Shown here: positions 6,382 through 28,475 of the stretch, piece after piece
How the letters are laid out: every line of letters starts with the position of its first letter
Numbering within the stretch: position 1 is the first letter of the stretch
DNA from: Candidatus Portnoybacteria bacterium CG_4_9_14_3_um_filter_43_11
GTDB taxonomy: Bacteria > Patescibacteriota > Minisyncoccia > Portnoybacterales > UBA2143
Direction: 5' to 3'
Length of the DNA stretch: 36,998 bases
NCBI GenBank assembly: GCA_002791035.1
Contig: PFWG01000009.1
Location: forward strand, 1 to 36,998
Notes under the pieces: model-generated
Told to the model about the DNA's origin: nothing
Database searches by the model: none
The model's input: only the letters and a program-made list of their open reading frames with translations
Translations under genes and position numbers: made by a program

Positions 6382-9300
6382 CTACTCTAATACCTTAACA
6401 CTCTCGCACAGGATTTTCAAGTTTTCGTCGCGATCGCTCAGCCGCCCGCTGACTAAAACGATTTTGTCTTCTTGCCAGGCCGGCGCGGTCTGCTCTAAGA
6501 CCTTCGGGAAAACAATGGTTTCAAACCGGCCGGTCAGGTCCTCAATTTCAACAAAAAGCATCGGCTGGCCGTTGCGGGTGTTGATTTTTTTTATTCGGTT
6601 GATTATCCCGCCGATTTTTATCCGACGGCCGGACTGATTTCTTGAAATCTGTCGGTAGGAAGTAGTCAGTTTTTCCAGTTTTTTGCGGTATCTCTCCAGC
6701 GGATGCTCGGAGATATAAAGGCCAAGGAGTTCTTTTTCCCAAGCCAGCATTTCATTTTTATTGGCTGGCGCGACTGACGGAAGCGCAAAAGACGGAATGG
6801 CAACATTGGTTTCGGCGCCGAATAAACTGACTTGGCCGCTTTGCCTGGCGCGTTGGGTTTCTCTGGCCAAAGAGAGCATTTGTTCCATGCCGGCCAAGAG
6901 TTGATTTCTTTCTCCAAAGCCGTCCAAAGCGCCGCATTTGACTAAACTTTCCAGCGATTTTTTATTGAGGTCTTTTGACTCTACCCGTTCAATAAAATCA
7001 GCGATTGACTGGTATGGTCCATTGGTCTTTCTTTCGTTGACGATGGCAGAAACGATGTTATGGCCGACATTTTTAACGGCATTAAGGCCGAAACGAATAG
7101 TCATATTGCCGGCTTTGGTAAAGTCGCAGTCGCTTTCGTTGGCGCTGGGGGGCAGGACTTTTATTCCCATTTGTTTGCACTCATCTACCAAAAAGGCGAT
7201 TCGCTCAATGTCGTTTTGCTCGGAAGTCATCAGCGCCGCCATAAACTCGGTTGGAAAATGAGATTTGAGATATGCGGTCTGATAGCCAATAAGGGCGTAG
7301 CAGACAGAATGGGCTTTATTGAATCCATACTGGGCAAATGGTTCAATTGTTTGCCAGATTTTGACGGCGGTTTTTTTCTCCAGCCCATTGGTGACCATGC
7401 CTTCAATCATTTTGTCCTTTTGCTCATCAAGCAGTTTTTTGATTTTCTTGCCGACAGCTTTTCTTAAAACATCGGCTTCGGGCAGGGAAAAACCGGCCAG
7501 GTCTCGGGCAATGCGCATCAATTGTTCTTGATAAACCATTACTCCGTAAGTGTTTTCAAGAATTGGCTTCAGTTTTGGATGGAGATACTCAATTTCTCTC
7601 AGTCCGTGCTTTCGGGCGATAAATTCCGGGATAAATTCTATTGGGCCCGGCCGATACAAGGCGACGAGAGCGACAATATCTTCAAATTTCGTCGGCTTTA
7701 ATTGTTTAAGGCATCTTTTCATACCTCCGCTGTTATGCACAACAAAACCATTGGCAACGAAGTTATTCCCCGGCGCTTTCATGACAATATCATAAGTTGT
7801 TTCTTTTTTGCCCGGTTTGATTTCTTTGACTTCAAGAAATTTAAAGCTTCTTTTAGTAGGAATGATAGGACATTCCCACTTAACTAGGTTTTTGTATTTG
7901 ATGGATAATTCCGCGAATTTTGTGGCGCTAATTAAAACGAAATTATATTGAGGGTATTGTTTTTGGAATAATTCCATCTTTTTTTGGTCCAACTCATGAA
8001 GCCATCCCTTAATTTCGTAGAAAGTGTTGGTATTCTTGACATAAAAGTCCGGAGTATAGTGAAGAGTTTCGCCACCGCTATTTTTTAATTCGAATGTTTT
8101 TGATTCGTATTCATATTCAACTTTATAGAGATTTAAAATTCTGGCAAAATCGGCTTCCCAATTAGAACGGACATAATGACCTAAATCTTTCCGGTACCCC
8201 CCTTTTCTATGCGGGGACTTTCTGCCAAACATTGGATTATTTTCTCCTCTAAATCTTTCGGATAATTTCTTTTTTATTTCCTTTGACTTCTTTATTCCGT
8301 AGAAGTCATCAAATGTTCTTCCTAATAAGGCCTTAGAAATTTTCTGACCGGTGTGTTGTAAAATTAAACTGGTTTCTTTTGTGAGTCCTTGATTCCATGG
8401 AGTTCCTCCTTTTTCATAAAATATCTTTCTGGCCCTAGAAATTTTTTCTCTTGATTTTGGTTTACTTGGATTTCTATAAAAAGTGGCGGAGCATTTGTAA
8501 CAGAAATTACTTTTTCCTTCTTTTTGTCCGCTTATTTGTTTCCTGCAACTTTGGCAAGTGTTATAAACTAAGTGTTTTGCTTTTGATTTTATTAAAATTT
8601 TTTCACCCTCTTTGATATCTTTTAATTGTTTCCATCCATTTTCGGTGAGAAAATAATGATCCGGCGTTGCTTTGATGTACCAATTATTTTCTGCTACTAA
8701 AATGAGGGTTTCTTTCTTGCCGGCGCAGCAAACATCAATAATTTGATTTTTGTGTATCGCGCCTTCGTCTAAGTAAACTGATTCCAATGCCTTTTTGTCT
8801 TTTCGCTTATATAACCCTTTAATCGTAGTGTTAGAAACTATAGTGTCTCCAGATAGACATTCCAATTGAAACACGCCGACGCTATTAGATTGCTGGAGCA
8901 GATGAAAAGTTTTCTTGTCATTAAGGGGGATGTTGTTGATTTCAGCTTCCTGGCCGGACAGTTCCCTAATTTGATTAAGGGTGTTTTGGATAACAGTCAA
9001 GGTTTTTAGGCCTAAAAAATCCATTTTTAGCAGGCCGAGGTCCTCAATGGCGTGCATTTCATATTGAGTGACAACGCTTTCATTATCCTGAGTCGGGTGC
9101 TGGCAGGGGACGGACTTGTCTAGTGGTTCTTTAGTGATGACGACGCCGGCGGCATGAGTAGAAGCGTGGCGGGCGACCCCTTCCAGCTTTTTAGCCATAT
9201 CAATCAGTCGCTTGGTGTTTTCATCCGATTCATAGGCATTATGGAGTTCCTGTGAATCGTTGACAGCGTTTTCCAAAGTAGAACCGAAAGGAATCATTTT

Positions 9301-9738
9301 TGCTACTTGGTCGCAAAAAGCATAGGAATATTCCATTGCCCGACCGACATCGCGGACCGCGGCTCTAGCGGCCATTGTCCCAAAAGTGATAATTTGAGCA
9401 ACATGGTCATGGCCGTATTTTTGCCGGACATAATCAATAACTTCGTCGCGCCGGTCATCGGCAAAATCCAGGTCAATATCCGGCGGAGAGATTCGTGTGC
9501 TTTCAATCTTTTTACGAGGGTTGAATTTGCCTTGAGGCAGTTGAGATGTTATTCCGAGGGCAAACGCGACAAAGCTGTTAATATCGTTTTTATCTCCCTG
9601 TTTTTTCTGTAGATAAAGATTGTGGAAATCATCAATTAACCCGAATTTTTCTATTTGCTCCAATTCAAAACCTAATCTCTTTTGGTCAAGATCTGTTCTT
9701 TGCCGACAAACTTCTTTTAATTCTTCAAATTTTCCCAT
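6382..9738 (-). CDS. dnaE: DNA polymerase III alpha subunit, C-terminal fragment (palm/thumb/fingers/OB), containing an intein
   Basis: Canonical DnaE resumes at NPRKKIESTRISPPDIDLDFADDRRDEVIDYV. Further blocks are HASTHAAGVVI, LLKMDFLGLKTL, VGVFQLE[intein]SGGM, ALYRPGP, YGVMVYQEQ, FNKAHSVCYA and a C-terminal OB region. Confidence 0.9.
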   Translation of the reverse strand: MGKFEELKEVCRQRTDLDQKRLGFELEQIEKFGLIDDFHNLYLQKKQGDKNDINSFVAFALGITSQLPQGKFNPRKKIESTRISPPDIDLDFADDRRDEVIDYVRQKYGHDHVAQIITFGTMAARAAVRDVGRAMEYSYAFCDQVAKMIPFGSTLENAVNDSQELHNAYESDENTKRLIDMAKKLEGVARHASTHAAGVVITKEPLDKSVPCQHPTQDNESVVTQYEMHAIEDLGLLKMDFLGLKTLTVIQNTLNQIRELSGQEAEINNIPLNDKKTFHLLQQSNSVGVFQLECLSGDTIVSNTTIKGLYKRKDKKALESVYLDEGAIHKNQIIDVCCAGKKETLILVAENNWYIKATPDHYFLTENGWKQLKDIKEGEKILIKSKAKHLVYNTCQSCRKQISGQKEGKSNFCYKCSATFYRNPSKPKSREKISRARKIFYEKGGTPWNQGLTKETSLILQHTGQKISKALLGRTFDDFYGIKKSKEIKKKLSERFRGENNPMFGRKSPHRKGGYRKDLGHYVRSNWEADFARILNLYKVEYEYESKTFELKNSGGETLHYTPDFYVKNTNTFYEIKGWLHELDQKKMELFQKQYPQYNFVLISATKFAELSIKYKNLVKWECPIIPTKRSFKFLEVKEIKPGKKETTYDIVMKAPGNNFVANGFVVHNSGGMKRCLKQLKPTKFEDIVALVALYRPGPIEFIPEFIARKHGLREIEYLHPKLKPILENTYGVMVYQEQLMRIARDLAGFSLPEADVLRKAVGKKIKKLLDEQKDKMIEGMVTNGLEKKTAVKIWQTIEPFAQYGFNKAHSVCYALIGYQTAYLKSHFPTEFMAALMTSEQNDIERIAFLVDECKQMGIKVLPPSANESDCDFTKAGNMTIRFGLNAVKNVGHNIVSAIVNERKTNGPYQSIADFIERVESKDLNKKSLESLVKCGALDGFGERNQLLAGMEQMLSLARETQRARQSGQVSLFGAETNVAIPSFALPSVAPANKNEMLAWEKELLGLYISEHPLERYRKKLEKLTTSYRQISRNQSGRRIKIGGIINRIKKINTRNGQPMLFVEIEDLTGRFETIVFPKVLEQTAPAWQEDKIVLVSGRLSDRDENLKILCESVKVLE
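7732..8859 (-). mobile_element. Intein (376 aa) inserted in the DnaE GVFQLE|SGGM motif
   Basis: Block A is CLSGDTIV, with Cys1 at codon 8857-8859. Block B is TPDH. Blocks F/G are TYDIVMKAPGNNFVANGFVVHN followed by +1 Ser, with Asn at codon 7732-7734. Removing it restores the conserved FQLESGGM. The segment is visibly more AT-rich than flanking dnaE. Confidence 0.85.
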
Positions 9739-10696
9739 GATAGAAATTCTTTACGAAGATATATTTACGTTTGAGAAAATAATTTGAGTTACGATAAAGA
9801 TAATCGACGAATTTTTTGACATCTTCCTTGCGAAAAAGGCGCAGTTGATAACTTCCTTTGCCGCCGCCCCTGTCGTCAAATCTTATTTTATGAAAAGTTA
9901 TCTTTAACTGTTTTTCTAACATACTCTTGATTTCTTTGGAAAATTGATAAGAAGCAGAGGACAAAGCGGAACAAAGATAGATATATCTGTTACTTTCCCG
10001 TTTATCTAAATAGAAGCTTCCGTCGCCGTCGTACATTCCTCGCAAAAAGTGTCTTATTAATTTTTCCGGAATTAAGGGAATGGATAATTCTTTCCAGCTT
10101 TTTCTCGGCATTACGCCCAAATTAATTAATGAATTACGCAAATTTTGGTTACTGATTATTAAACAAAAATAATTTTTGTATTGATGGATGGGGCTAGTCG
10201 TCTCTAACAGTTTTCTACAGGTTTCAATCATATCTCTGTCATTTGAGGAGATATTAATGTGATTGCTTTTACTGGAAACACTGCCGTCGGAAAAAATTAT
10301 TCCTAAAAGGTAGGCCTTGCCTTCAGAATCAATTTTATCAAAAAATTTTTCATTAACTTTGTAGGCCCTACTTTTTATATTACATTGATTGCTGCAAAAA
10401 ATTTGATGAGGATTTCTAGATCTATATCCGAATACAGATTTACAGGTCGGACAAATTTTATCGTCGCGATTATATTTACGACGCGCCTTTGATGAGCATT
10501 TTTCGCCGCAATATTTTCGATTGCGAGTTTCTCTTTTATTTACAAACTCTTCGTTGCATTGAAGGCAAATTTTTTGGTAGGCCGCATTTTTTCGGAAACT
10601 ATTATAACAAGCAAGGGAACAAAAGCGGGCGGCAGATTCTCGATAATTGTGTATATAAAACTCTTTTGAGCAGGACTGGCAGATTTTTTTAATCAT
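9725..10696 (-). CDS. Free-standing double-motif LAGLIDADG homing endonuclease with three N-terminal CxxC...FCxxxC zinc modules
   Basis: LAGLIDADG motifs are [13 protein letters not shown] and [14 protein letters not shown]. The N-terminus has three CxxC-x15/16-CxxxC repeats. The ATG at 10696 overlaps the stop of the upstream dnaE fragment. The stop lies 14 nt inside the downstream dnaE fragment. The frame differs from both dnaE fragments. Confidence 0.85.
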
Positions 10697-11909
10697 GAAT
10701 TCCAAAATCCTCTTTATTCAAAAAGTATGTTTCTTTAACACTCAAGAATCTTTCAAAGAGCAAATCATATTTTAGCGGGTCAATGTCGGTAATGTTCAAA
10801 AGATGGGAAACAATGGAGCCGGCGGCGCTTCCTCGGCCCGGGCCGCAGACAATGCCGTTGGACTTGGCCCAGTTGATGAAATCGGCGACGATAAGAAAAT
10901 ACGAGGCGAAACCGGTTTTGGCAATAACTTTCAATTCGTAGTCCAGTCGTTCCAGAACTTTTTCTATCGGGCTGTCAAATTGGCGCTTCTTCAGCCCCTC
11001 CAGGCAAAGTTTTTTGATGTAGTCGTCGGGTGCTTCGCCGGTTGGAACCTCAAACGAAGGTAGCTGGATTTTGCCCAGTTCAAACTCAAAATTGCACGCT
11101 TGAACGATTTTTTGAGTGTTGGCTATCGCTTCGGGGATATGCTTGAAATCCTGAATCATTCTTTCCGTCGACCGAAGGGAAAAATCGTCGTCTTTCATCG
11201 TCAGCCGCCGCTGATCGTCCACTTTTTTGTCGGTCTGAATACTCATCAAGACATCTTGAGCTTCGGCGTCTTCGGGTCTGATGTAGTGAACGTCGTTGGT
11301 GGCGACCAAGGGGATGCCGCATTTTCTTGCCAGTTCAATCATGGCTTTATTGACCGGTTCCTGGCTGGACAGGCCGGGGTGGTGTTGGATTTCAAGGTAA
11401 AAATTTTCCGGACCGAAGATTTTTTGGTATTCCCGGGCGGCTTCCTCCGCTTCCTTTATTTTGCCGGCGGCAATTTTTTTAGGAACTTCGCCGGAAAGGC
11501 AAGCAGTCAGGGCGATCAGACCCTGGCTATGTTTTTTTAGGAGTTCTTTGTCTATGCGCGGCTTGTAATAAAAGCCGTCCAAATACGCCTTGGTGGTCAA
11601 TTTGACCAAATTGCGGTAACCAGTGTCGTTTTTGACTAAAAGAACAAGATGATTGAGTTTGTTGTCAATTCCCGGTTGGCGGTCAGCCATAGTTCGGGGA
11701 GCGAGATACATTTCGCTGCCGATAATGGGACGGATACCTCTTTTTTTGGCCTTCTGATAAAACTCGACTACGCCATACATAGAGCCATGGTCGGTTAAGG
11801 CGATGGAAGACATCTTCAACTCCTGGCACATATCCAAAATCTGGTCTATTTTAGCCAACCCGTCTAACAGAGAGTAATGAGAGTGAACATGTAAATGAGT
11901 GAATTTCAT
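10689..11909 (-). CDS. dnaE: DNA polymerase III alpha subunit, N-terminal fragment (PHP domain to ...FERFL)
   Basis: Contains the PHP motif [15 protein letters not shown], then [38 protein letters not shown] and [34 protein letters not shown]. This is followed by 17 non-DnaE residues and a stop. Confidence 0.9.
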
Positions 11910-16402: not shown

Positions 16403-17350
16403 CTAATACATTTCAATGGGTCTGTTTTTAAAATCCCTGAACCGGACCGGGCTGAATTTCCAAAAATCCAAGGGTAGAGGAATTTTACCGAAGCCGTTGG
16501 GCGTATCAATCAAGTGGAAGGGGAAAGCGATGCCGGAAATATTTTTTCTCAATTTGGTCATAATCCTGATTTCTTTTTCAATCGGGACGATGAAATGTTC
16601 GGCCCCTTTAACCAGGTCGCAGTGATAGATATAGTAGGGCCTGATGCCCAAGTTGCTTAATTCGGTAAAAAGTTTTTTCAAAACAGAATAGGAATCGTTA
16701 ACGCCCTTCAAGAAAACCGACTGGGAAAGAAGAATGACCCCGGTTTGCCTAAGCGCTTCAAGCGCTTTGATGGTCTGAGGCGTAAATTCATCCGGGTGCT
16801 CAAAATGGACGCTTAAATAAAGCGGCTTTTTTTTGTTGATTTTTTTAAATAAACAGAGAATATCCTTGGTTATCAAGCCGGGTCGAGAAACCGGCACGCG
16901 GGTATGAAGGCGTAATTTCTTGATTTGCGGCAAAACAAGTATTTTATTCAGCGTGGTTGTCAGCAGGCGCGGAACAGTCAGGGGGTCGCCGCCCGAGAAG
17001 ACGGCTTCGTTAATTTCGGGGCGGCTTTTGAGATAATCAATTATTTTTTTGATATCAGCGGGGTAAATTTTGCCCTTTTTGATGTCCGAAACCATTCGAC
17101 GCCGAGTGCAAAAACGGCAGTAAGAAGCGCAATTCATGGTCAACTCTATTAATACCCGGTGCGGATATTTATGGACCAGACCCTTTGTTTTCCGATAAAT
17201 ATCCTCCAAGAGAGGATCTGTTAGAGCTTTTTTAGAAACAATGTTTTCTTTCGGCGAAGGGAAAAATTGTTTCTTTACCGCCGGCGATTTTTGGGCCAGT
17301 TTTTTCAGATGGCGGCTGATTTTAACGAGCATTTTTTCTCTTTTCGGCAA
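16403..17350 (-). CDS. KamA-family radical SAM aminomutase (lysine 2,3-aminomutase / EpmB-like)
   Basis: Contains the CxxxCxxC cluster CASYCRFCTRRR, FSGGDPL, and a short EpmB-like length. The start is ambiguous: TTG at 17350 or ATG at 17332 (MLVKISRH). Confidence 0.8.
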   Translation of the reverse strand: MPKREKMLVKISRHLKKLAQKSPAVKKQFFPSPKENIVSKKALTDPLLEDIYRKTKGLVHKYPHRVLIELTMNCASYCRFCTRRRMVSDIKKGKIYPADIKKIIDYLKSRPEINEAVFSGGDPLTVPRLLTTTLNKILVLPQIKKLRLHTRVPVSRPGLITKDILCLFKKINKKKPLYLSVHFEHPDEFTPQTIKALEALRQTGVILLSQSVFLKGVNDSYSVLKKLFTELSNLGIRPYYIYHCDLVKGAEHFIVPIEKEIRIMTKLRKNISGIAFPFHLIDTPNGFGKIPLPLDFWKFSPVRFRDFKNRPIEMY

Positions 17351-17352
17351 AC

Positions 17353-17380
17353 AAAAAAGAACCTGTGGTTGAGTGGTTCT
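17353..17380 (-). terminator. Hairpin plus U-run on the minus strand abutting the KamA-family ORF start
   Basis: The minus strand reads AGAACC-actcaaccaca-GGTTCT-TTTTTGT, ending 2-3 nt before the TTG at 17350. A similar hairpin (AAGAAC...GTTCTT) lies near 17423-17450. Confidence 0.45.
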
Positions 17381-17602
17381 CCGTCTTTGCTGTTAATTGG
17401 TTAATTTTATCTTGGCCGGTAAAAGAACTCTGCTGTGGCAGTGGCGGTTCTTCGCTTTGAAAGAAATAGTTTTGCGAACTGGCAGTCATTTTTTAAATCC
17501 GTTTAACTCCATTGTAATTCTTTGGTGTGTCTTGTCAACTCTGTTGGGGGTAGAATCTCTTTTAGAGATTCTACGGAGTTGAAATTGGGGATTGGTCTTC
17601 CA

Positions 17603-18526
17603 CTAGGATTTTGCCAAGTCAGAAAATAAGGTTTTAAGCCCGGCGGTATTTAACCAATAATTCTTTGGATTTTTCTTTAAGTATTTTTTGATTTCTTTTC
17701 TTTGTGTTTTTAGTTTATCGCCAGCCCTGCTGTTGGATATGAGTATATTTGAATAACTGCCGTCTAAAAAAGAGATGTAGGAAATATTTGGAGTTTTTTC
17801 CTTGAGATTTAATATTTCAATTAGTTCTGAAATCTGCTTATCTTGTCCGCCGCCGGAGGTGTTAAGATGTTTTGCTTCTATTAAAAATATCTTATTTTTA
17901 TACCTAATAATCAGGTCTAATTTTTTACCTTGCTTTTTGGCTTTAAGTTTAACTTTTAAATTTTCTTTGACTTTTTTAACGCTGAAAACCTTGGAAAATT
18001 GAGCAACGCATTTGTTTGATTTATTAAATTCTTCCCAAGTTTTAACTTCTTTAAAACCCAATTTCTTTAATATCAAGGTTAGTTTTAATTCGCCGCATTT
18101 TCCTTTCTTGCGAGAGGAATTAGAATCTATTATTGCCTGAATCCATTCTTCGGGGACGAGGTCTCTTAACAATCTTTTAGAAAAGTATCTCCGGGTAATT
18201 TTCTTTATTAAGTCCAAATCTTTTCTGACCGCGCCCAAGGTATTATCGCAGGCGTTAACGAAACAGATAAATTCGGAGCAGTTGGAAAATTCCGATAATG
18301 ATTTTTGCAATTCTTCAAAATACTTGTTGATTATTTTTGGATTTTCTTTTTTCTTTTGAAGAGTTTTAATGGTAGTTAAAATTTCCTTGATCTCTTTTGT
18401 ATTTTTGACATATTTTTTCAGATTAGGATTTTTATTGTCAAAAATATAAAAATTATCCAAAGAAGTTTCTGGATTTTCCTGCGATACTTTAAAGTAATGT
18501 TGATTGTTTTGAATGTTTTTGCTCAT
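17603..18526 (-). CDS. Putative type II restriction endonuclease (PD-(D/E)XK-like)
   Basis: It overlaps and follows the methyltransferase gene. The candidate catalytic pattern is GEL...KKLDLIIRYKNKIFLIEAKH (D...ExK). The gene is very AT-rich and lysine-rich. Confidence 0.55.
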   Translation of the reverse strand: MSKNIQNNQHYFKVSQENPETSLDNFYIFDNKNPNLKKYVKNTKEIKEILTTIKTLQKKKENPKIINKYFEELQKSLSEFSNCSEFICFVNACDNTLGAVRKDLDLIKKITRRYFSKRLLRDLVPEEWIQAIIDSNSSRKKGKCGELKLTLILKKLGFKEVKTWEEFNKSNKCVAQFSKVFSVKKVKENLKVKLKAKKQGKKLDLIIRYKNKIFLIEAKHLNTSGGGQDKQISELIEILNLKEKTPNISYISFLDGSYSNILISNSRAGDKLKTQRKEIKKYLKKNPKNYWLNTAGLKTLFSDLAKS

Positions 18527-19628
18527 AGAGATAATTCAAAAATTTATAGGTAAAATCAAACGAAATTCTTTTGCGGCCGTTATCGCGGAAATTAGTGAGA
18601 AAAAATGAAAAATATTTTTTTCTGTTTTGGTTTAACTTCTGGTTGAATTCCTGTATTAGTTTTTCCTGCTCTTCCACGGGAATTCCCTGGCCGAAAATTA
18701 TATGGGCCATATTTCGAGAAGTATTTTTACCAACAAGCCCTAAAATATTATATCTTCTTATATCTTCAAGTTGTATCTTTTTTCCGTTCTTGCTGTCAAT
18801 GGCTCTTAAGAGCAAGATATTTCTTTCTAAAATATTTCTAACATTTCCATGGATATTATAATTTCTTATTTCCTTTATATTTTGAAACGCCATTTTAGCT
18901 CCATAACTTCCAGATTTCAGAAAATCTTCAGTCAGGCGGAAAATTTCTAAATAATTTTTAGCGCTTTTTATCTGATTAATAAAATTGCCGCCTAACTGCC
19001 AGCCGAATTTTCTTTCTATAGCAAAATTGATTTTTTCTTTTTCTGGGAATATGGCAGCTGATATTTTGTTTTTACCATCAAATCCTTTTTTCTTCTTGTA
19101 ATAAAAAGAAATTACATTATAGGTCGTATCTTTAAAAACTTGTTGGGAAAAAACATTTAACTTAATAATCTTAAACTTTTCAAAAAATAGGTTCCTGATT
19201 TTTTTTGAATTTTCGGCGCAAAGAAAATTTAGAGGAACAATTAAAATTCCTTCTTCGGAATCAAGAATTGAATAGATAGAAACTTGATATAGGTCTTCGA
19301 AAAAGGAGTGTGTGCCGGAAAAGAAATTATCTTTTGTTTTTCCATCGGCTTTATTCTTATGCAGATATGGCGGATTGGTTAAAACAAATTTATATTTCTT
19401 CGGAGAATTGATAGAGTCGTTGTAAAAAACCTTTTTGTTGTCGGTATATTTTTTATCACAGTCAAAGCCGGTGATTTTTTTACATTTATTTTTGCTAGCC
19501 CAACTAAACAAATCCTGATTTCCGGCGAATGGATCAGTAATTTCTTTATTCTTTACGAATGATTCTAGCCCTTGGAGAATATAGTCGGAATTTGTAGTAA
19601 AGAATTGTCCGAGTTGGGCTTTGGTCAT
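18489..19628 (-). CDS. N6-adenine DNA methyltransferase (gamma-type motif order)
   Basis: The motif order is LGQFFTT (motif X-like), then DPFAGNQDL (motif I), then LTNPPY (motif IV). Confidence 0.85.
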   Translation of the reverse strand: MTKAQLGQFFTTNSDYILQGLESFVKNKEITDPFAGNQDLFSWASKNKCKKITGFDCDKKYTDNKKVFYNDSINSPKKYKFVLTNPPYLHKNKADGKTKDNFFSGTHSFFEDLYQVSIYSILDSEEGILIVPLNFLCAENSKKIRNLFFEKFKIIKLNVFSQQVFKDTTYNVISFYYKKKKGFDGKNKISAAIFPEKEKINFAIERKFGWQLGGNFINQIKSAKNYLEIFRLTEDFLKSGSYGAKMAFQNIKEIRNYNIHGNVRNILERNILLLRAIDSKNGKKIQLEDIRRYNILGLVGKNTSRNMAHIIFGQGIPVEEQEKLIQEFNQKLNQNRKKYFSFFLTNFRDNGRKRISFDFTYKFLNYLYEQKHSKQSTLL

Positions 19629-19634
19629 ATCTTT

Positions 19635-19640
19635 ATTATA
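19635..19640 (-). promoter_or_regulatory. Candidate -10 box (TATAAT) 6 nt upstream of the methyltransferase ATG
   Basis: The minus strand reads ctagTATAATaaagatATGacc, with no room for an SD sequence. Confidence 0.4.
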
Positions 19641-19664
19641 CTAGAAAATAGAAATTTTGATAAG

Positions 19665-19692
19665 AAAAAACCGATGCATTAGATCGGTTTTT
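19665..19692. terminator. Bidirectional intrinsic terminator-like hairpin
   Basis: AAAAAA-CCGAT-gcattag-ATCGG-TTTTT lies between the 19715-20251 ORF and the R-M operon. Confidence 0.6.
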
Positions 19693-19714
19693 CTACTTTT
19701 GTTTTAATGGGATG

Positions 19715-20251
19715 TCAATGTTTGTGATTTGCTATAACTTTTCTGAAATCTTTTTTTAATTGTTTTTTTATATTTGGTAATTTGTTTTCGATTTCTTGAA
19801 ATGCTTTATTCCATTGTTGAAAGGAAGTATCTTGGTCTTTTATTGATTGCGACATAATTGATGCTTCTAGATTGCTTAAAATTTGAAGCGAACTATCAAT
19901 AAAAGAATGAATCATTAAAACTGAACTTTTGTCTAGAATTATTTCTTTCTCCCAAAAATAATCTTGTAGACCGAAAAATTTTGTTTTTATCAAGGGGAAT
20001 TCATTTATTTTTTCAGATAAAGATCCCTGATTGGTCTTTGCGCCAATTGTTCTGCTATATTTTTTAAAATCTTTCTCAAGAGCAACGATCTTGCTGTATA
20101 TTTCTTCCAAATAAACAAGTTTTCTATCAAAGATTTTTTCAAATGTATATCTTCTTTGAGAAAAGTAGTATGTCAGAACTGCGGTTAAGAGAATACCAAG
20201 TAATGAGATAACGCTTTGTATAAAACTTGGACCAGATAAGAAATCTTTCAT
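19715..20251 (-). CDS. Hypothetical membrane-anchored coiled-coil protein
   Basis: One N-terminal TM segment (VISLLGILLTAVLTYYF) and a helical remainder. The gene is AT-rich. I recognise no family. Confidence 0.5.
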   Translation of the reverse strand: MKDFLSGPSFIQSVISLLGILLTAVLTYYFSQRRYTFEKIFDRKLVYLEEIYSKIVALEKDFKKYSRTIGAKTNQGSLSEKINEFPLIKTKFFGLQDYFWEKEIILDKSSVLMIHSFIDSSLQILSNLEASIMSQSIKDQDTSFQQWNKAFQEIENKLPNIKKQLKKDFRKVIANHKH

Positions 20252-20300
20252 AGATTGTGTCGTAGAACAAATAACAATACTTTATCTAAATGTGGATATT

Positions 20301-20376
20301 TGGCGGGGACGATGGGAATCGAACCCACGATCTCCTGCGTGACAGGCAGGCGCTTTAACCGCTAAGCTACGCCCCC
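20301..20376 (-). tRNA. tRNA-Asp (GUC), CCA encoded
   Basis: The reverse complement folds as GGGGGCG-UA-GCUU..AAGC-G-CCUGC-CUGUCAC-GCAGG-AGAUC-GUGGG-UUCGAUU-CCCAU-CGUCCCC-G-CCA. The anticodon is GUC. Confidence 0.9.
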
Positions 20377-20380
20377 AAAG

Positions 20381-20454
20381 TAGCGGCGACAGGATTCGAA
20401 CCTGTGACATCGGGCTTATGAGTCCCGCGCTCTAACCAACTGAGCTACGCCGCC
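20381..20454 (-). tRNA. tRNA with CAU anticodon (elongator Met or Ile2), no encoded CCA
   Basis: The reverse complement folds as GGCGGCG-UA-GCUC..GAGC-G-CGGGA-CUCAUAA-GCCCG-AUGUC-ACAGG-UUCGAAU-CCUGU-CGCCGCU-A. It has a G1-U72 wobble and an A31/G39 mismatch. Confidence 0.8.
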
Positions 20455-20455
20455 A

Positions 20456-21145
20456 TCATTTTATTTTTAAATTAGATATTCCTTCAATCCAGCCGTCTAT
20501 TTTTCTTCTTAGTCGAGTTCCTTTCCGGACTTTTATTCTTAGGGTTCCAAAATGTTCGTTATAGTTTTCGTAAATTTTTTTTGTTTCTGTCTTTTTTAAA
20601 CTTGGTTTATTGAACTGCGATAGGGGAATCTCCGTAAGATCGGACCAATATTTTTCTACTTCCTTTACTCTTTTTTTATGAATCTTGTTAATTCCCACTC
20701 TAAGAGAAAACCTATCGATGCTTATTTTGCAACAATTTTTGAACCATTCGAGCATAAAAAGAATCATTTTCGGATCTGAATTAGTAAATCCAACGTCATA
20801 ATTAGACGGAGCAGTATATCCTTCACTCCAATACATTGCTATTCCAGCAACAAGTAAATCTCTTTTATTAAGTTTATCGATTTCTTTAATGCCCTCTTTT
20901 CTTAATAACTCTACTTCCGTTTGTCTTTTTTGTCTTATTTTTTCTACCGCCCTTAATCTTCCTTCGTAACTTCCGGATATTTGTTTTTCCACTAATCGTT
21001 TAATCTGAGTATGCGAAAGTGGTATATCTCTACACCATACGCTAACAGTGCCCTTAGAGATATTTATCTTTTGAGCAATTTCATTGATACTCAATCCTCT
21101 TTTGCGTAACTTTTGCGCTTTAGTCTGTTCCTCTATCTTCGCCAT
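20456..21145 (-). CDS. HTH domain protein with a LAGLIDADG-like C-terminal domain (putative free-standing homing endonuclease or maturase-like)
   Basis: The N-terminal HTH is RGLSINEIAQKINISKGTVSVW. LLVAGIAMYWSEGY resembles a single LAGLIDADG motif. The gene is AT-rich and sandwiched between tRNA genes. Confidence 0.5.
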   Translation of the reverse strand: MAKIEEQTKAQKLRKRGLSINEIAQKINISKGTVSVWCRDIPLSHTQIKRLVEKQISGSYEGRLRAVEKIRQKRQTEVELLRKEGIKEIDKLNKRDLLVAGIAMYWSEGYTAPSNYDVGFTNSDPKMILFMLEWFKNCCKISIDRFSLRVGINKIHKKRVKEVEKYWSDLTEIPLSQFNKPSLKKTETKKIYENYNEHFGTLRIKVRKGTRLRRKIDGWIEGISNLKIK

Positions 21146-21197: not shown

Positions 21198-21235
21198 TTT
21201 ATCAACCGTTAAATTGCGGAGAACTTTGATACTTG

Positions 21236-21515
21236 TTGCGGGGGTCGGATTCGAACCGACGACCTCGAGGTTCTTAATATTAGCCATTTGTTGCCAAATG
21301 GAATGGACTGTCCCATTCTCTCGCTAATTTAACGAGAGATTCCCATTACAGTCTCTGAACCTTTCCCGTAGTTAATACGGGACTTGGCTGCTGATTGTCG
21401 TAAATATATCTTTACGAGTTCCCAGCAAGTTCGGGAATTTTTCCGCAGAATGTCGCCATCCTGGGCCACAATCATTTTATGGGCCTCGCGAGCTGCCAGA
21501 CTGCTCTACCCCGCG
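21236..21515 (-). tRNA. Initiator tRNA-fMet (CAU) gene interrupted by a group I intron; exons 21479-21515 and 21236-21272
   Basis: The joined exons give CGCGGGG-UA-GAGC-AGUCUGGCA-GCUC-G-CGAGG-CCCAUAA-CCUCG-AGGUC-GUCGG-UUCGAAU-CCGAC-CCCCGCA-A (74 nt). This is nearly colinear with E. coli tRNA-fMet, including the C1xA72 mismatch. Confidence 0.85.
21273..21478 (-). ncRNA. Group I intron (206 nt, no ORF) inserted after the CAU anticodon
   Basis: The 5' exon ends in U and can pair as CCAU with the internal guide GUGG 9 nt into the intron, giving a U-G wobble at the splice site. The intron ends in G. Core-like strings CAAUCAGCAGCCAAGUCCCG and GGUUCAGAGACUGUAAUGGGAA resemble the conserved P/Q and J8/7-P7 regions of tRNA group I introns. 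Size and insertion site resemble the Azoarcus tRNA-Ile intron. Confidence 0.75.
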
Positions 21516-21520
21516 CTGGT

Positions 21521-21549
21521 ATTATAGCCGAAAGTTTCAGAGATATCAA
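21521..21549 (-). promoter_or_regulatory. Sigma70-type promoter of the tRNA-fMet gene (TTGATA-17 nt-TATAAT)
   Basis: The minus strand reads TTGATAtctctgaaactttcggcTATAATaccag followed by tRNA position 1. The -10 box ends 5 nt before the mature 5' end. Confidence 0.6.
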
Positions 21550-22008: not shown

Positions 22009-23070
22009 ATGCTTAATCAACTCAAACAAAACGCGTTGAAAGAGATCGCGGCGACCAAAGAACTCAAGGGCTTGGACGCGGTTTACCGCCGCTATTTGGG
22101 CCGGAAGGGAGAATTGACCAAGGTTTTGCGTTCGCTTAAGGACTTATCCGAAAAAGAACGGAAAGAAACGGGGACGGCGGCCAATGAAATCAAACGGGGA
22201 TTGGAAGAAGCGGTTGGAGAGAAGCGCCGAGAGTTTTTGGCGCCGAGCGGGAAAACCCCGTCTTTATCCCGCTTCGGCGGGACGAGCGGGAAAACCCCGC
22301 CGAGCGGGGTAAATTGGCTTGATGTTACCGCGCCCGGCGTCAAGCCGGCGGTGGGTCATTTGCATCCAATTACCTTGGTCCAAAGGCAAGTTGAAGATAT
22401 TTTCCAATCAATGGGTTTTTCGGTCGTTGACGGTCCGGAAGTGGAAACTGAATACTACAACTTTGACGCTTTAAATATTCCCCCAGGCCATCCGGCTAGG
22501 GATGTATTATCTCTTGGAAGGACTTTTTACTTAAAAAAAGGAGGATTAATGAGGAGTCATACTTCTCCTATGCAAATTCGTTATATGGAGAAACATAATC
22601 CTCCTATTAGGATGATTGTTCCCGGAAAAGTTTTTCGAGTAGAAGCCACCGATTCTTCTCATGAGACAAATTTTTATCAACTTGAGGGGTTAATGATCGG
22701 AAAAGACGTTTCAGTGGCTAATTTTAAAGCAGTAATCCAGGAATTTTTGGAAAATTTCTTCAAAAAATCTATTAAGGTTAAATTAAGACCTTCTTATTTT
22801 CCTTTTGTCGAACCGGGTTTTGAAATAGACATGAGTTGCACTATGTGTGTCGGTAAAGGATGTGCTGCTTGTAAATATTCTGGCTGGATAGAGATGATGG
22901 GAGCTGGAATGATACACCCTAAAGTTTTGAAATCTGGCGGTTTAGATCCAAAAAAATGGCAAGGTTTTGCCTTTGGAATGTCGCTGGATAGGTTAACAAT
23001 GATAAAGTATAGGATTAATGATATTCGTTTATTCCACAGTGGAGATTTAAGATTTCTTCAACAATTCTAA
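22009..23070 (+). CDS. pheS: Phenylalanyl-tRNA synthetase alpha subunit, compositionally mosaic
   Basis: Contains an N-terminal coiled coil, DVTAPG, GHLHPIT, HPARD, SHTSPMQIRYM, FRVEATDSSHETNFYQLEGL, YFPFVEPGFEI and GFAFGMSLDRL. Confidence 0.93.
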   Translation: MLNQLKQNALKEIAATKELKGLDAVYRRYLGRKGELTKVLRSLKDLSEKERKETGTAANEIKRGLEEAVGEKRREFLAPSGKTPSLSRFGGTSGKTPPSGVNWLDVTAPGVKPAVGHLHPITLVQRQVEDIFQSMGFSVVDGPEVETEYYNFDALNIPPGHPARDVLSLGRTFYLKKGGLMRSHTSPMQIRYMEKHNPPIRMIVPGKVFRVEATDSSHETNFYQLEGLMIGKDVSVANFKAVIQEFLENFFKKSIKVKLRPSYFPFVEPGFEIDMSCTMCVGKGCAACKYSGWIEMMGAGMIHPKVLKSGGLDPKKWQGFAFGMSLDRLTMIKYRINDIRLFHSGDLRFLQQF

Positions 23071-23133
23071 TTTTTATTAAACAAAACTCAAAAGGTCGAA
23101 TCCTAAATAATTTAAAAATTAAATATTAATTAA

Positions 23134-23286
23134 ATGAATACAATATCTCAAAAACCTAAAATATTAAAGAAAAATTCGGCTAAAAAACATCCAGAATTTG
23201 GTTTCTGTTTTAGAGGACACGGCGGAAAATCATTAAAGCGAAAGAAAAGCTTAACTGAAAAAATTTTAAAAAAGGTTAATAAGTAG
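23134..23286 (+). CDS. Unannotated 50-codon ORF, candidate RiPP precursor peptide (very basic, single Cys in an aromatic patch)
   Basis: Hand translation gives MNTISQKPKILKKNSAKKHPEFGFCFRGHGGKSLKRKKSLTEKILKKVNK. It is the only ATG-initiated ORF I found on the + strand filling the pheS to radical SAM gap, and it ends 21 nt before the radical SAM start. It is below the ORF-track length cutoff. No SD sequence is present. Confidence 0.4.
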   Translation: MNTISQKPKILKKNSAKKHPEFGFCFRGHGGKSLKRKKSLTEKILKKVNK

Positions 23287-23307
23287 ATAGAATTCCTCCC
23301 ATAGACA

Positions 23308-24573
23308 ATGAAAAATAATTTAGTCAAAATTCGTAAAGAAACGGATTATTATCTGGCGTATTTTAATGAATTAAGAAAACTGATCCCTGTTAATTATATC
23401 GGCTCGATAATCATTGATAGTTTCTTTAATAAAAGGTTTTCTATCCGGGAAATTCAAAATTTCATCAGACAAAACGGCAGAAGATATAATCTTTCGTCAA
23501 AAGATATTCAAATCTTTCTTCGACAAATCCAAGACGAACTTATTTTAGCGCCCCGGGGGAATGTTCGTTTATATCAAAGGGAATTGAGCGCTCCAATAGC
23601 GGTTGAAATTGAGATAACTACCCGATGTAATTTAAGGTGTAAGCATTGTTGTATTAAGAAATATGATAAATTGATGTCAATCAATAGAATTGAACGCATT
23701 TTTAAATTATTAAATGAAAAAAGAGTTTTTGAAATTAGCTTAGCCGGAGGAGAGCCCTTTGTTCATCCTCAAATTCTAGATATTCTTTCGTTATGTGAAC
23801 AATATAACTTCGCTACAATTATAACGACTAACGCTACACTCTTGAGCGAGTCTTTAATTAAAAGATTGGCTGAATTTAAAAATTTGGCTTTCGTCGTAAG
23901 CTTAGAAGGGATTGATAGGACTAACGACATAATCAGAGGGAGGGGCGTTTTCAAAAAAGTAGACCAGGCCGTTAGAAACCTTAAAAAAAACGGTATCTAT
24001 GTTGAAATATCTTCGACAATTACCGAGGAAAACATAGACCGCTGTCGAGAATTAGTGGAATATACTAAGTCCTTAGATATCTTTTGTAATTTCAATTTAT
24101 TTAAACCCTTTAAGAAAGATCATAAACCGTATATTCTTGGGCCCAATAAATATTTTAAATTTATAGAAGATCTATTTGAGGAAAGGAATTTTTCTGGGGC
24201 AAAAGTTAATTTGCCAAACGCCGGGGCTATTTTCGCTTATTTAGAAGGACAAGAAAAATGTAATGAGTGTTATGCGATTATGTGTGCTTTTACGATTGAT
24301 GTGGAAGGGAGTATAGTCCCTTGTCCCGCTCTTCAATCCGCCGGTTATTATGATGAAATCTTCTTGCCGAAATTCGAGGAAAATTTTATAGATATTTGGA
24401 AGAATAATCGACATTTTCAAGATTTTCGCAAAGGAAATTTAAGAGAATGTCGAGCGCGTTCATATATATTCAATAGGAATATAAAAAGGAATGATCCTTA
24501 TGGGATAACTGCTTTTCTGAGATACCAAAAAGCGAAAAGTCAAGAAGTAAAAAATAAGCTACTTAATTCTTAA
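23308..24573 (+). CDS. Radical SAM enzyme with an N-terminal PqqD-like RRE and a C-terminal SPASM/twitch-like Cys cluster (RiPP maturase-like)
   Basis: The CxxxCxxC cluster is TTRCNLRCKHCC and the GGE motif is LAGGEPF. The first ~85 residues (VKIRKETDYYLAYFNELRKLIPVNYIGSIIIDSFFNKRFSIREIQNFIRQ...SKDIQIFLRQIQDELIL) match the PqqD/RRE pattern. The C-terminal Cys pattern is CNECYAIMC-x7-GSIVPC ... C. Confidence 0.85.
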   Translation: MKNNLVKIRKETDYYLAYFNELRKLIPVNYIGSIIIDSFFNKRFSIREIQNFIRQNGRRYNLSSKDIQIFLRQIQDELILAPRGNVRLYQRELSAPIAVEIEITTRCNLRCKHCCIKKYDKLMSINRIERIFKLLNEKRVFEISLAGGEPFVHPQILDILSLCEQYNFATIITTNATLLSESLIKRLAEFKNLAFVVSLEGIDRTNDIIRGRGVFKKVDQAVRNLKKNGIYVEISSTITEENIDRCRELVEYTKSLDIFCNFNLFKPFKKDHKPYILGPNKYFKFIEDLFEERNFSGAKVNLPNAGAIFAYLEGQEKCNECYAIMCAFTIDVEGSIVPCPALQSAGYYDEIFLPKFEENFIDIWKNNRHFQDFRKGNLRECRARSYIFNRNIKRNDPYGITAFLRYQKAKSQEVKNKLLNS

Positions 24574-24583
24574 TAAATAATAT

Positions 24584-28475
<3,892 letters not shown>

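Follow-up and report, generated by a model that had tools for sequence, protein, structure and literature searches.

Why should a 50-codon open reading frame (ORF) and a radical S-adenosylmethionine (SAM) gene stand between pheS and pheT, the phenylalanyl-tRNA synthetase (PheRS) genes, in a member of the Patescibacteria? This question is raised by contig PFWG01000009.1 (assembly GCA_002791035.1) of Candidatus Portnoybacteria bacterium CG_4_9_14_3_um_filter_43_11, of which all 36,998 nucleotides (nt) were analysed and are called the window in the following. It is very likely that the two genes form a pair of the kind behind ribosomally made peptides with post-translational modifications (RiPPs), i.e. 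a precursor peptide and its maturase. The best composite explanation, which we hold with moderate confidence, goes further: the precursor would receive a thioether-type crosslink, the mature peptide would act on the 50S ribosomal subunit, protection genes would shield the producer, and the copy in the window would be a derived one.

The features concerned are given below by their position in the window, with loci from other genomes referred to by L numbers.

22009-23070, + strand: pheS (Pfam PF01409, PF02912), the upstream flank of the insert and also a flank in L165, L166 and L168.
23091-23099, + strand: the element AAAGGTCGA, conserved, 42 nt 5' of the peptide start.
23134-23286, + strand: ORF of the putative precursor peptide, 50 amino acids with a pI of 10.8; within the E-x-G-C-C-[LF]-x-S-C-G-G-x-P family of peptides it is derived.
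23194-23232, + strand: core motif EFGFCFRGHGGKS, residues 21-33 of the peptide (family consensus E[STA]GCC[LF][RT]SCGGxP), in which the middle cysteine, C25, is the sole cysteine kept.
23308-24573, + strand: putative radical SAM peptide maturase, 421 amino acids (PF04055, PF13186, AlphaFold, Foldseek).
23308-23562, + strand: predicted N-terminal RiPP recognition element (RRE, PqqD-like), residues ~1-85 of the enzyme (model topology, PF05402 matches of homologs, SuiB/CteB alignments).
23587-24207, + strand: radical SAM core with C107-x3-C111-x2-C114 and the SAM-binding G147-G148-E149 (invariant alignment columns; PF04055 at residues 101-245).
24208-24507, + strand: probable twitch-like or cut-down SPASM auxiliary-cluster region, C321-x12-G334-x4-C339 ... 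C381 (invariant cysteines; PF13186 at residues 321-382).
24584-26557, + strand: pheT (Pfam B3_4, B5, FDX-ACB), the downstream flank and also a flank in L165, L167 and L168.

The layout is exactly as it had been read from the letters alone before any database search: pheS, the 50-codon ORF, a gap of 21 nt, the 421-residue radical SAM protein and pheT, which follows the enzyme ORF after 10 nt. The 50-codon ORF is without annotation at NCBI, where the accessions run consecutively (gyrB PIP15945, pheT PIP15946, the radical SAM protein PIP15947, pheS PIP15948). The segment of peptide and enzyme is compositionally foreign. Its G+C content at third codon positions is 0.24 in the peptide gene and 0.30 in the enzyme gene, compared with 0.42 in pheS, 0.52 in pheT and 0.56 in gyrB, and the overall G+C of the 23-24 kb bin is 0.31 against about 0.45 in the surroundings. 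A search for direct or inverted repeats and target-site duplications flanking the insert gave AT-rich chance matches only. No terminator-like sites were seen on the + strand within the insert, and co-transcription of the cassette with PheRS is plausible.

Is the location itself informative? The order pheS-peptide-enzyme-pheT is found again in L165/L166 and L168, and pheS/pheT flanks are common to four loci with an enzyme identity of 72-76%, which together make up what we call the window clade. Family loci outside this clade lie in genomic contexts other than pheS-pheT. The placement is a trait of one clade and not of the family, and it gives no evidence for an involvement of PheRS. As a candidate target, PheRS was set aside because the pheS-pheT site is confined to that clade and the two genes are ordinary housekeeping genes.

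The loci of the family were obtained from species-representative genomes (three family members among 185,579 species), from metagenomes (five more) and from look-ups of single homologs. A short peptide with the family core stands beside the enzyme wherever the flank was adequate (20 of 20 loci), and these peptides are homologous to the short ORF of the window. A profile made from 17 peptides retrieved 153 peptide clusters from a large protein database, all of them unnamed or 'hypothetical' and without a Pfam domain; counts of core residues were made on the best 120 of the 153 clusters. The canonical core E-[STA]-G-C-C-[LF]-[RT]-S-C-G-G-x-P occurs in 119 of these 120 peptides, with the window peptide as the sole outlier. 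Some 20 residues separate it from the N-terminus. The tail behind it is variable, 19-53 residues long, and has a charge between -5 and +8 across the family. The window peptide contains 16 Lys+Arg, and its basic tail, at first thought atypical, is ordinary within the 'CCF' subfamily. The NCBIfam precursor models, SCIFF included, matched none of the 17 peptides; the short ORF likewise matched no ribosomal-protein family, and no paper with the core motif strings was found in the searchable literature. The peptide family lacks a Pfam or NCBIfam model and is apparently undescribed as far as the searchable literature shows.

In the window core EFGFCFRGHGGKS two of the three cysteines and the proline have been lost. 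All residues that are invariant in the peptide alignment (E21, G23, C25, G30 and G31) have been kept, and the pattern common to all peptides including that of the window is E-x-G-x-C ... G-G. The same variant core, PE[FL]GFCFRGHGGK, was found in two more loci (L165/L166 and L168), the enzymes of which are 72-75% identical, and the peptide sequence of the window itself (P0162) was found exactly on 71 contigs. Codon differences in the core within the window clade occupy synonymous positions only. The ratio of nonsynonymous to synonymous substitution rates (dN/dS) in this clade is 0.12-0.21 for the peptide and 0.11-0.17 for the enzyme, at a dS of about 0.6-2, which is near saturation. Both cassette genes are under purifying selection. 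Judged from its conservation, the variant core is not the result of decay, because it is shared with L165/L166 and L168, changes synonymously only and shows a low dN/dS. For the same reasons, and because peptides homologous to it stand before the enzyme in related loci, the short ORF is no chance reading frame and very probably a real precursor gene; reading it as an RNA or DNA element is rejected since the codon variation is synonymous.

The origin of the variant can be followed in the nearest outgroups. L169, L170 and L171, with enzymes 53-56% identical, have canonical ESGCCF[RT]SCGG cores, and the window leader KPKILKKNSAKK is homologous to their KPKIIKKNSSKK; the database peptide P0130, with EFGCCFRSCGG, is intermediate. 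The window clade is derived within the family. The sequence-only reading had proposed that the aromatic/His patch around the single cysteine could host a thioether or an aromatic C-C crosslink. This patch is peculiar to the clade: Leu occupies core position 6 in 93 of the 120 peptides, and only the window clade has the His, which excludes an aromatic C-C crosslink as the conserved chemistry of the family.

Upstream of the peptide, the element AAAGGTCG(A), which in the window is 23091-23099, lies 29-46 nt 5' of the peptide ATG in eight loci (the window, L165, L168, L169, L170, L171, L001 and L085), all of the 'CCF/FCF' subfamily and of that subfamily only. These loci are without a Shine-Dalgarno sequence, whereas in the remaining subfamilies GGAGG immediately precedes the ATG. 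A promoter, an operator and a tRNA-like remnant are candidate explanations of the element.

Does the enzyme look like one that modifies peptides? The Pfam scan gave PF04055 with 79.3 bits (cutoff 29.5) and SPASM PF13186 as a marginal pass with 23.3 bits (cutoff 21.5) at residues 321-382. The RRE that had been assigned to the first 85 or so residues was not matched by PqqD PF05402 at E<=0.1 in the protein itself, but PF05402 is recorded for at least 15 homologs of the family, and the fold is supported by the model. The AlphaFold model, built on the family alignment, has a pLDDT of 91.4 (above 90 in the partial TIM barrel) and a pTM of 0.89. Its N-terminal domain has strands at 6-10, 15-19 and 24-28, then helices at 30-41, 46-56 and 64-79, which is the winged-helix topology of an RRE. 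Foldseek against the PDB placed SuiB first (E 5e-22, TM 0.65-0.68, full-length), then CteB, SkfB and anSME, with no RlmN or Cfr among the 50 Foldseek matches listed. The profile search against the PDB gave SkfB (8e-27), SuiB (1e-23) and then CteB, with the SuiB and CteB alignments beginning at positions 26-27. An RRE-radical SAM-SPASM/twitch architecture is supported by the model topology, the Foldseek ranks and the PDB profile alignments that extend into the N-terminal domain.

In an alignment of 32 sequences C107, C111, C114, G147, G148 and E149 are invariant. The only invariant cysteines of the C-terminal part are C321, C339 and C381, in the pattern C321-x12-G334-x4-C339 ... C381; the more extended CxxCx4C-x7-Gx4C...C pattern that had been noticed in the window protein holds in these three, while C318 and C326 are clade-specific and not family-wide. 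The seven-cysteine SPASM pattern (CX9-15GX4C ... CX2CX5CX3C ... C) binds two auxiliary [4Fe-4S] clusters, and the twitch domain of the SkfB, BtrN and MoaA type binds one, by a CX9-15GX4C beta-hairpin and a downstream cysteine. The full SPASM pattern is not seen in the family: Arg replaces the second cysteine of CX2C in several clades and in the window protein, and no CX5CX3C comes after it. The twitch motif is present in the sequence (C321...G334-x4-C339...C381 invariant). Because only three cysteines are invariant, the region probably holds a single auxiliary cluster and is best called twitch-like, or a truncated SPASM.

No NCBIfam family was found above its cutoff. The best score was WgkB with 106 bits (cutoff 650), followed by MftC TIGR03962 with 94.6 (265) in a near full-length alignment, with ScmE and others below. 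NF033640 N_Twi_rSAM reached 76 bits (170), which leaves the window enzyme outside that subfamily. PqqE TIGR02109 aligned over the full length with 65.3 bits (381) and PapB NF047865 over almost the full length with 64.6 (340), and the maturase models for sactipeptides, whose thioether bridges join Cys sulfur to an alpha-carbon, scored 62.7 (StsB, 625) and 59.8 (AlbA, 850). The homolog search, which covered 5.8 billion proteins, showed a family with sharp bounds: about 68 clusters, with proteins of 396-433 amino acids, score E<=1e-77, and the next match is at 1e-26. The family is mostly from the candidate phyla radiation (CPR); its named members come from Parcubacteria, Pacebacteria, Patescibacteria and one Dehalococcoidia. 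Within the window clade, 9 of 100 conserved enzyme columns carry clade-specific substitutions; three of these are near the active site or the auxiliary cluster, Q116 adjoining the cluster motif and R318 and G327 lying in the auxiliary-cluster hairpin. They are weak evidence for a co-variation of enzyme and peptide. The enzyme groups with peptide maturases and not with cofactor or tRNA enzymes, and the fold, the structure of the family and the co-occurrence of the two genes all support the reading of the pair as precursor and RRE-radical SAM-SPASM/twitch maturase.

What the peptide acts on may be judged from the neighbours. Clustering of the neighbouring genes over all family loci gave two recurrent partners only, an ABC-F protein and an Erm-type methyltransferase. 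The ABC-F gene directly adjoins the cassette in 14 loci and encodes 491-576 amino acids with tandem nucleotide-binding domains (NBDs; two ABC_tran stretches) and without a membrane domain. Its placement varies: downstream or upstream on the same strand, divergent, convergent, or between enzyme and peptide (L003/L004). The cutoff of 380 for NF000355, 'ribosomal protection-like ABC-F', is passed by 11 of 13 intact ABC-Fs (381-445 bits), and NF000355 is still the best model for the two below it (L086 with 375, L174 with 298); none of the linked ABC-Fs approaches the EttA and Uup cutoffs. The ABC-F of L172, a metagenome-assembled Clostridium genome, is split over two overlapping ORFs of 348 and 184 amino acids (7577-9131); the gene may be frameshifted, a pseudogene or misassembled.

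A methyltransferase of the RrnaAD family adjoins the cassette in L002, L169, L171, L174 and L086. With NF000499, the model of Erm methyltransferases for A2058 of 23S rRNA (cutoff 212), L171 scored 247.3, L169 231, L002 229 and L174 221 bits, and L086 lies just below with 208. Scores of the Erm-type proteins with KsgA are 159-173 at a cutoff of 171, which only L171 passes, marginally (173.2) and with a far higher Erm score; the more distant methyltransferase of L085 is a true KsgA (225 bits). The loci without ABC-F (L002, L169, L171) carry the Erm-type gene, and L086 and L174 carry both. In total, 17 of 17 distinct loci outside the window clade have ABC-F, an Erm-type gene or both, as against 0 of 171 control loci, i.e. 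unrelated radical SAM/SPASM loci comprising 1.52 Mb. Pairwise identities of the radical SAM enzymes and the ABC-Fs are correlated (Mantel r = 0.62, p = 0.0005). The best pairs agree with the subtypes of the peptide, so that a given subtype of peptide goes with its own subtypes of enzyme and ABC-F.

The region of the peptidyl-transferase centre (PTC) and exit tunnel of the 50S subunit is protected by resistance factors of the ABC-F kind as well as by Erm methylation, and it is a classic signature of self-resistance when protection genes of two different mechanisms meet at a single site. Because the two kinds of protection converge there, we infer that the mature peptide would act at the PTC or exit tunnel. 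We regard a ribosome-directed activity of the family as slightly better than an even bet. The sequence-only reading had considered a target linked to translation as an alternative; the linked ABC-F and Erm-type genes give this idea unexpected support at the level of the family.

Other genes were observed around these loci. L170 encodes an extra PqqD-radical SAM-SPASM protein of 446 amino acids (198-1586, - strand), different from the family enzyme. Its ABC-F is followed by a methyltransferase of class I and by a FeeM-like acyltransferase, which is seen again in L087. L085 encodes an extra PapB/WgkB-like radical SAM protein of 322 amino acids (8971-9939, + strand). A serine recombinase (resolvase) lies directly 5' of the radical SAM-ABC-F-peptide module in L003 (4211-4822) and L004 (91-702). 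Here the G+C of the host context is 0.46-0.49 compared with 0.31 for the enzyme gene, and this much higher value is consistent with acquisition of the module by horizontal transfer.

Several points weigh against the explanation that we prefer. The Fisher test of family against control loci (p = 1.6e-24) is overstated, because the loci share ancestry and are not phylogenetically independent. NF000355 is a broad model. The PDB profile search leaves resistance and housekeeping ABC-Fs unseparated (VmlR-type ExpZ 402, YheS 388, YbiT/Uup/EttA 374-375 bits), and in a database search with the profile of the linked ABC-Fs, ordinary Uup-type proteins overwhelmed the result. The linked ABC-Fs could be the ordinary translation factors of their hosts; the only point in favour of a resistance type is that three of the seven close homologs of the L007 ABC-F have longest contigs of the same size (23383, 6447 and 5595) as listed for cassette genes. 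No conserved leader protease or exporter was found beside the pair in 20 loci, which is unusual for a secreted antibiotic; the product may be released by generic systems or act inside the cell. The thioether and its Glu acceptor are proposed by analogy only. L167, the closest relative, has the enzyme and pheT, yet no peptide is present in the 263 nt available upstream; this sequence is unrelated to the other loci, and the locus, a short-read contig, is uninformative. Finally, no ABC ATPase or RrnaAD gene is found in the 37-kb window, and with a strongly altered core and no protection gene nearby, what is inferred about the ribosome may not carry over to the window clade.

Could the family then be an ordinary secreted RiPP of the bacteriocin type, with its target in the membrane or envelope? 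In that case the ABC-F and methyltransferase genes would be neighbours for another reason; the ABC-F could, for example, help translation through the Gly/Cys/Pro-rich core, or the synteny could be inherited within the CPR. Many of the peptides are cationic with amphipathic-looking tails, as the 16 Lys+Arg and the pI of 10.8 of the window peptide illustrate, the assignment of the ABC-F subfamily is not decisive, and in one locus (L001) an exporter with transmembrane domain and NBD is found upstream of the cassette. However, tail charges from -5 to +8 make a common membrane-active tail unlikely, and Erm-type 23S rRNA methyltransferases, which replace or accompany ABC-F in five loci, are not housekeeping proteins. 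The adjacency has been kept although the gene arrangement varies, and it has no counterpart in the control loci. Among the alternatives this one survives best, as an improbable reading with a small share of the probability.

Since no exporter or protease is conserved in the 20 loci, the product may act inside the producer. It would then belong to a translation-control or toxin/antidote module, in which the modified peptide binds the cell's own ribosomes (in dormancy, addiction or defence), the binding is undone or forestalled by the ABC-F or the Erm-type protein, and the window clade expresses a detoxified variant together with PheRS. The module is compact, foreign in composition and variable in context, a resolvase stands beside the L003 copy, and the window genome is rich in selfish elements. 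Nevertheless, the PADLOC library gave generic matches only (viperin core, ATPase, methyltransferase), so that this is not a known defence system. A scan of viral contigs found only distant radical SAM relatives (<=31% identity) and no member of the family, i.e. the cassette is not phage-borne in the viral collection scanned. The searchable literature held no precedent: no RiPP cluster with ABC-F plus Erm-type protection, no radical SAM RiPP with such genes beside it, and nothing on this system in Patescibacteria/CPR. A secreted product, moreover, could make use of the general proteases and exporters of the host. We rate the intracellular module a little below the secreted bacteriocin. An equally slim chance is given to its boldest form: a new class of radical SAM-modified 50S-binding peptides, perhaps acting as an intracellular translation-control or addiction module countered by ABC-F and Erm-type proteins, of which the window would hold a one-cysteine variant without antidote, hard-wired in the PheRS operon.

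A third possibility is a ribosome-resistance island, where the radical SAM enzyme modifies rRNA or a ribosomal protein in the manner of Cfr and the short ORF is a stalling leader peptide that regulates the genes downstream. Clusters with cfr, erm and ABC-F resistance genes carry leader ORFs, the order of short ORF, radical SAM, ABC-F and erm-like gene resembles them superficially, and the neighbours are ribosome-related. This reading is highly improbable: the enzyme has a predicted peptide-binding RRE and matches SuiB, CteB and SkfB, but not RlmN/Cfr among the 50 Foldseek matches listed; a Cys-rich 13-residue core has been kept across 120 peptides from different phyla; in L003/L004 the peptide is downstream of ABC-F with no cluster gene after it; and the window clade retains peptide and enzyme without any resistance gene. 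Equally improbable is a redox cofactor pathway of the pyrroloquinoline quinone (PQQ) or mycofactocin type with a crosslinked and excised Glu/Cys core, as suggested by the second rank of MftC in NCBIfam, the full-length alignment of PqqE and an invariant E-x3-C spacing that recalls the E-x3-Y of PqqA, since both scores are far under their cutoffs of 265 and 381, the neighbourhoods have no recurrent peptidase, dehydrogenase or enzyme dependent on a cofactor, and the partners that do recur are ribosome-related.

Returning to the crosslinked, ribosome-directed peptide as the preferred explanation, its steps may be pictured as follows. The RRE domain at the N-terminus of the enzyme would bind the precursor peptide, and the radical SAM core would generate the 5'-deoxyadenosyl radical. 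In the CteB structure a cysteine of the substrate ligates the auxiliary cluster; by analogy, the single twitch-like cluster of the family enzyme, with three invariant protein cysteine ligands, may engage the core cysteine. The enzyme would then install an intramolecular crosslink at the conserved core, the likeliest product being a thioether from C25 to a nearby carbon. QhpD and PapB make thioethers from Cys to Glu or Asp, and in analogy with these links the invariant E21, four residues before C25, is the best candidate for the acceptor; a thioether from C25, possibly to E21, is our best guess. The two extra cysteines of canonical members would allow additional bridges. The mature peptide would act on the large ribosomal subunit, at the PTC or in the exit tunnel, and the ABC-F and Erm-type genes would protect the producer.

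In the window clade, a low-GC cassette of two genes entered the pheS-pheT spacer and lost its linked protection genes, and the core of the peptide lost two of its three cysteines and the proline; both genes nevertheless stayed under purifying selection. Linkage to a protection gene is found in 0 of 4 loci of the window clade compared with 17 of 17 other family loci (p = 1.7e-4). The loss of two cysteines and the proline together with the missing linkage suggests a change of activity, which could be a lower self-toxicity, another target, or a protection gene that is unlinked. It is rather doubtful that the window variant keeps the ribosome-directed activity of the family. The observation that the window has no transporter or protease gene holds for the ORFs scanned, with the exception of SecY.

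The window also contains several features that are separate from the cassette. At 21284-21488 (- strand) a group I intron was found (full model of Rfam RF00028, E 3.8e-18, 71.3 bits where the gathering score is 50), which the gathering scan of the whole window had missed. Its exons (~21489-21530 and 21210-21283) belong to a split tRNA; after removal of the intron in silico ARAGORN calls a tRNA of ~76 nt, and the intron thus interrupts the anticodon loop. The exons GCGGGGTAGAGCAG... / ...GGTCGTCGGTTCGAATCCGACCCCCGCA resemble initiator tRNA-Met, judged by the E. coli sequence. The gene dnaE (DNA polymerase III alpha, 6382-11909, - strand) is broken up by selfish elements into a PHP and N-terminal part (10689-11909), a LAGLIDADG_3 ORF (9725-10705) and the remainder (6382-9738), where inserts of NUMOD3 and endonuclease-I-like type accompany a splicing domain of an intein.

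A second low-GC block (17000-21000, G+C 0.29-0.37) holds the following, all on the - strand: a restriction enzyme similar to DpnII/Tsp45I (17603-18526), an ORF that weakly resembles a Type II methyltransferase (18489-19628), an ORF without family match (19715-20251), tRNA-Asp and tRNA-Met (20301-20454) and a helix-turn-helix protein (20456-21145). This block is probably a restriction-modification island beside tRNA genes. A second and unrelated radical SAM gene (16403-17350, - strand) belongs to the KamA family (lysine 2,3-aminomutase/EpmB-like; TIGR00238, 219 bits against 199) and is probably a housekeeping gene of the elongation factor P (EF-P) modification type.

The CPR/Patescibacteria have tiny genomes and are generally thought poor in natural-product pathways; the widespread and compact RiPP family that the results point to, with at least 153 peptide clusters, is of interest in such organisms. 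The linkage to ABC-F and Erm-type genes points to a specific target that can be tested, the 50S exit tunnel or the PTC. If the proposal is right, the family would provide a new chemical scaffold for the inhibition of ribosomes, as well as a natural setting that keeps ABC-F and Erm resistance genes outside the classical antibiotic producers. The window clade, with a one-cysteine core, no protection gene and a place in an essential operon, is a natural experiment, and a comparison of it with canonical members could show which of the crosslinks activity and toxicity depend on.

With respect to known systems, the architecture is like that of sactipeptide, ranthipeptide and streptide maturation, and the enzyme falls outside each of these named families by their own membership tests. 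SuiB/StrB (streptide) and CteB (the sactipeptide thermocellin) have the same RRE-radical SAM-SPASM architecture with a small precursor gene beside the enzyme, but they are only 17-20% identical to the window enzyme and have a full SPASM with two auxiliary clusters, compared with three invariant C-terminal cysteines here. The window peptide has no Trp, so the Lys-Trp link of streptide is not possible, and the core is different. In the same way the conserved aromatic partner in the core that is used in WgkB/streptide, darobactin and triceptides is not found in this family, whose core is without Trp. SkfB, the maturase of the sporulation killing factor, forms a cysteine thioether, and the skf operon holds export and immunity genes of another kind. 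Its structure is the top sequence match in the PDB and shares an N-terminal RRE and a single-cluster twitch domain with the window enzyme, as far as predicted; the alignment is limited to the radical SAM core (profile positions 93-257) and the precursor is different.

Ranthipeptides (PapB/SCIFF) and QhpD have in common with the family a Cys-rich core and an invariant acidic residue four positions from the invariant cysteine. The orientation is E-x3-C here and not C-x3-D as in the ranthipeptides, and the pair lies outside the PapB and SCIFF families. Mycofactocin and PQQ precursors differ as well, the peptides of this family being without a C-terminal Gly-Val-Tyr or an E-x3-Y motif. Klebsazolicin and phazolicin are linear azole-containing peptides that plug the exit tunnel (for phazolicin see PMC6783444). 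They share with the present family the logic of a peptide aimed at the 50S tunnel or PTC, as we propose it here; they are made by YcaO/dehydrogenase, in contrast to the radical SAM enzyme of this family. The logic is also that of the clusters of macrolide and lincosamide producers, in which ABC-F or Erm self-resistance is encoded by target-protection genes inside the cluster, as we propose it here; a producer-type ABC-F model (NF000171) exists in NCBIfam.

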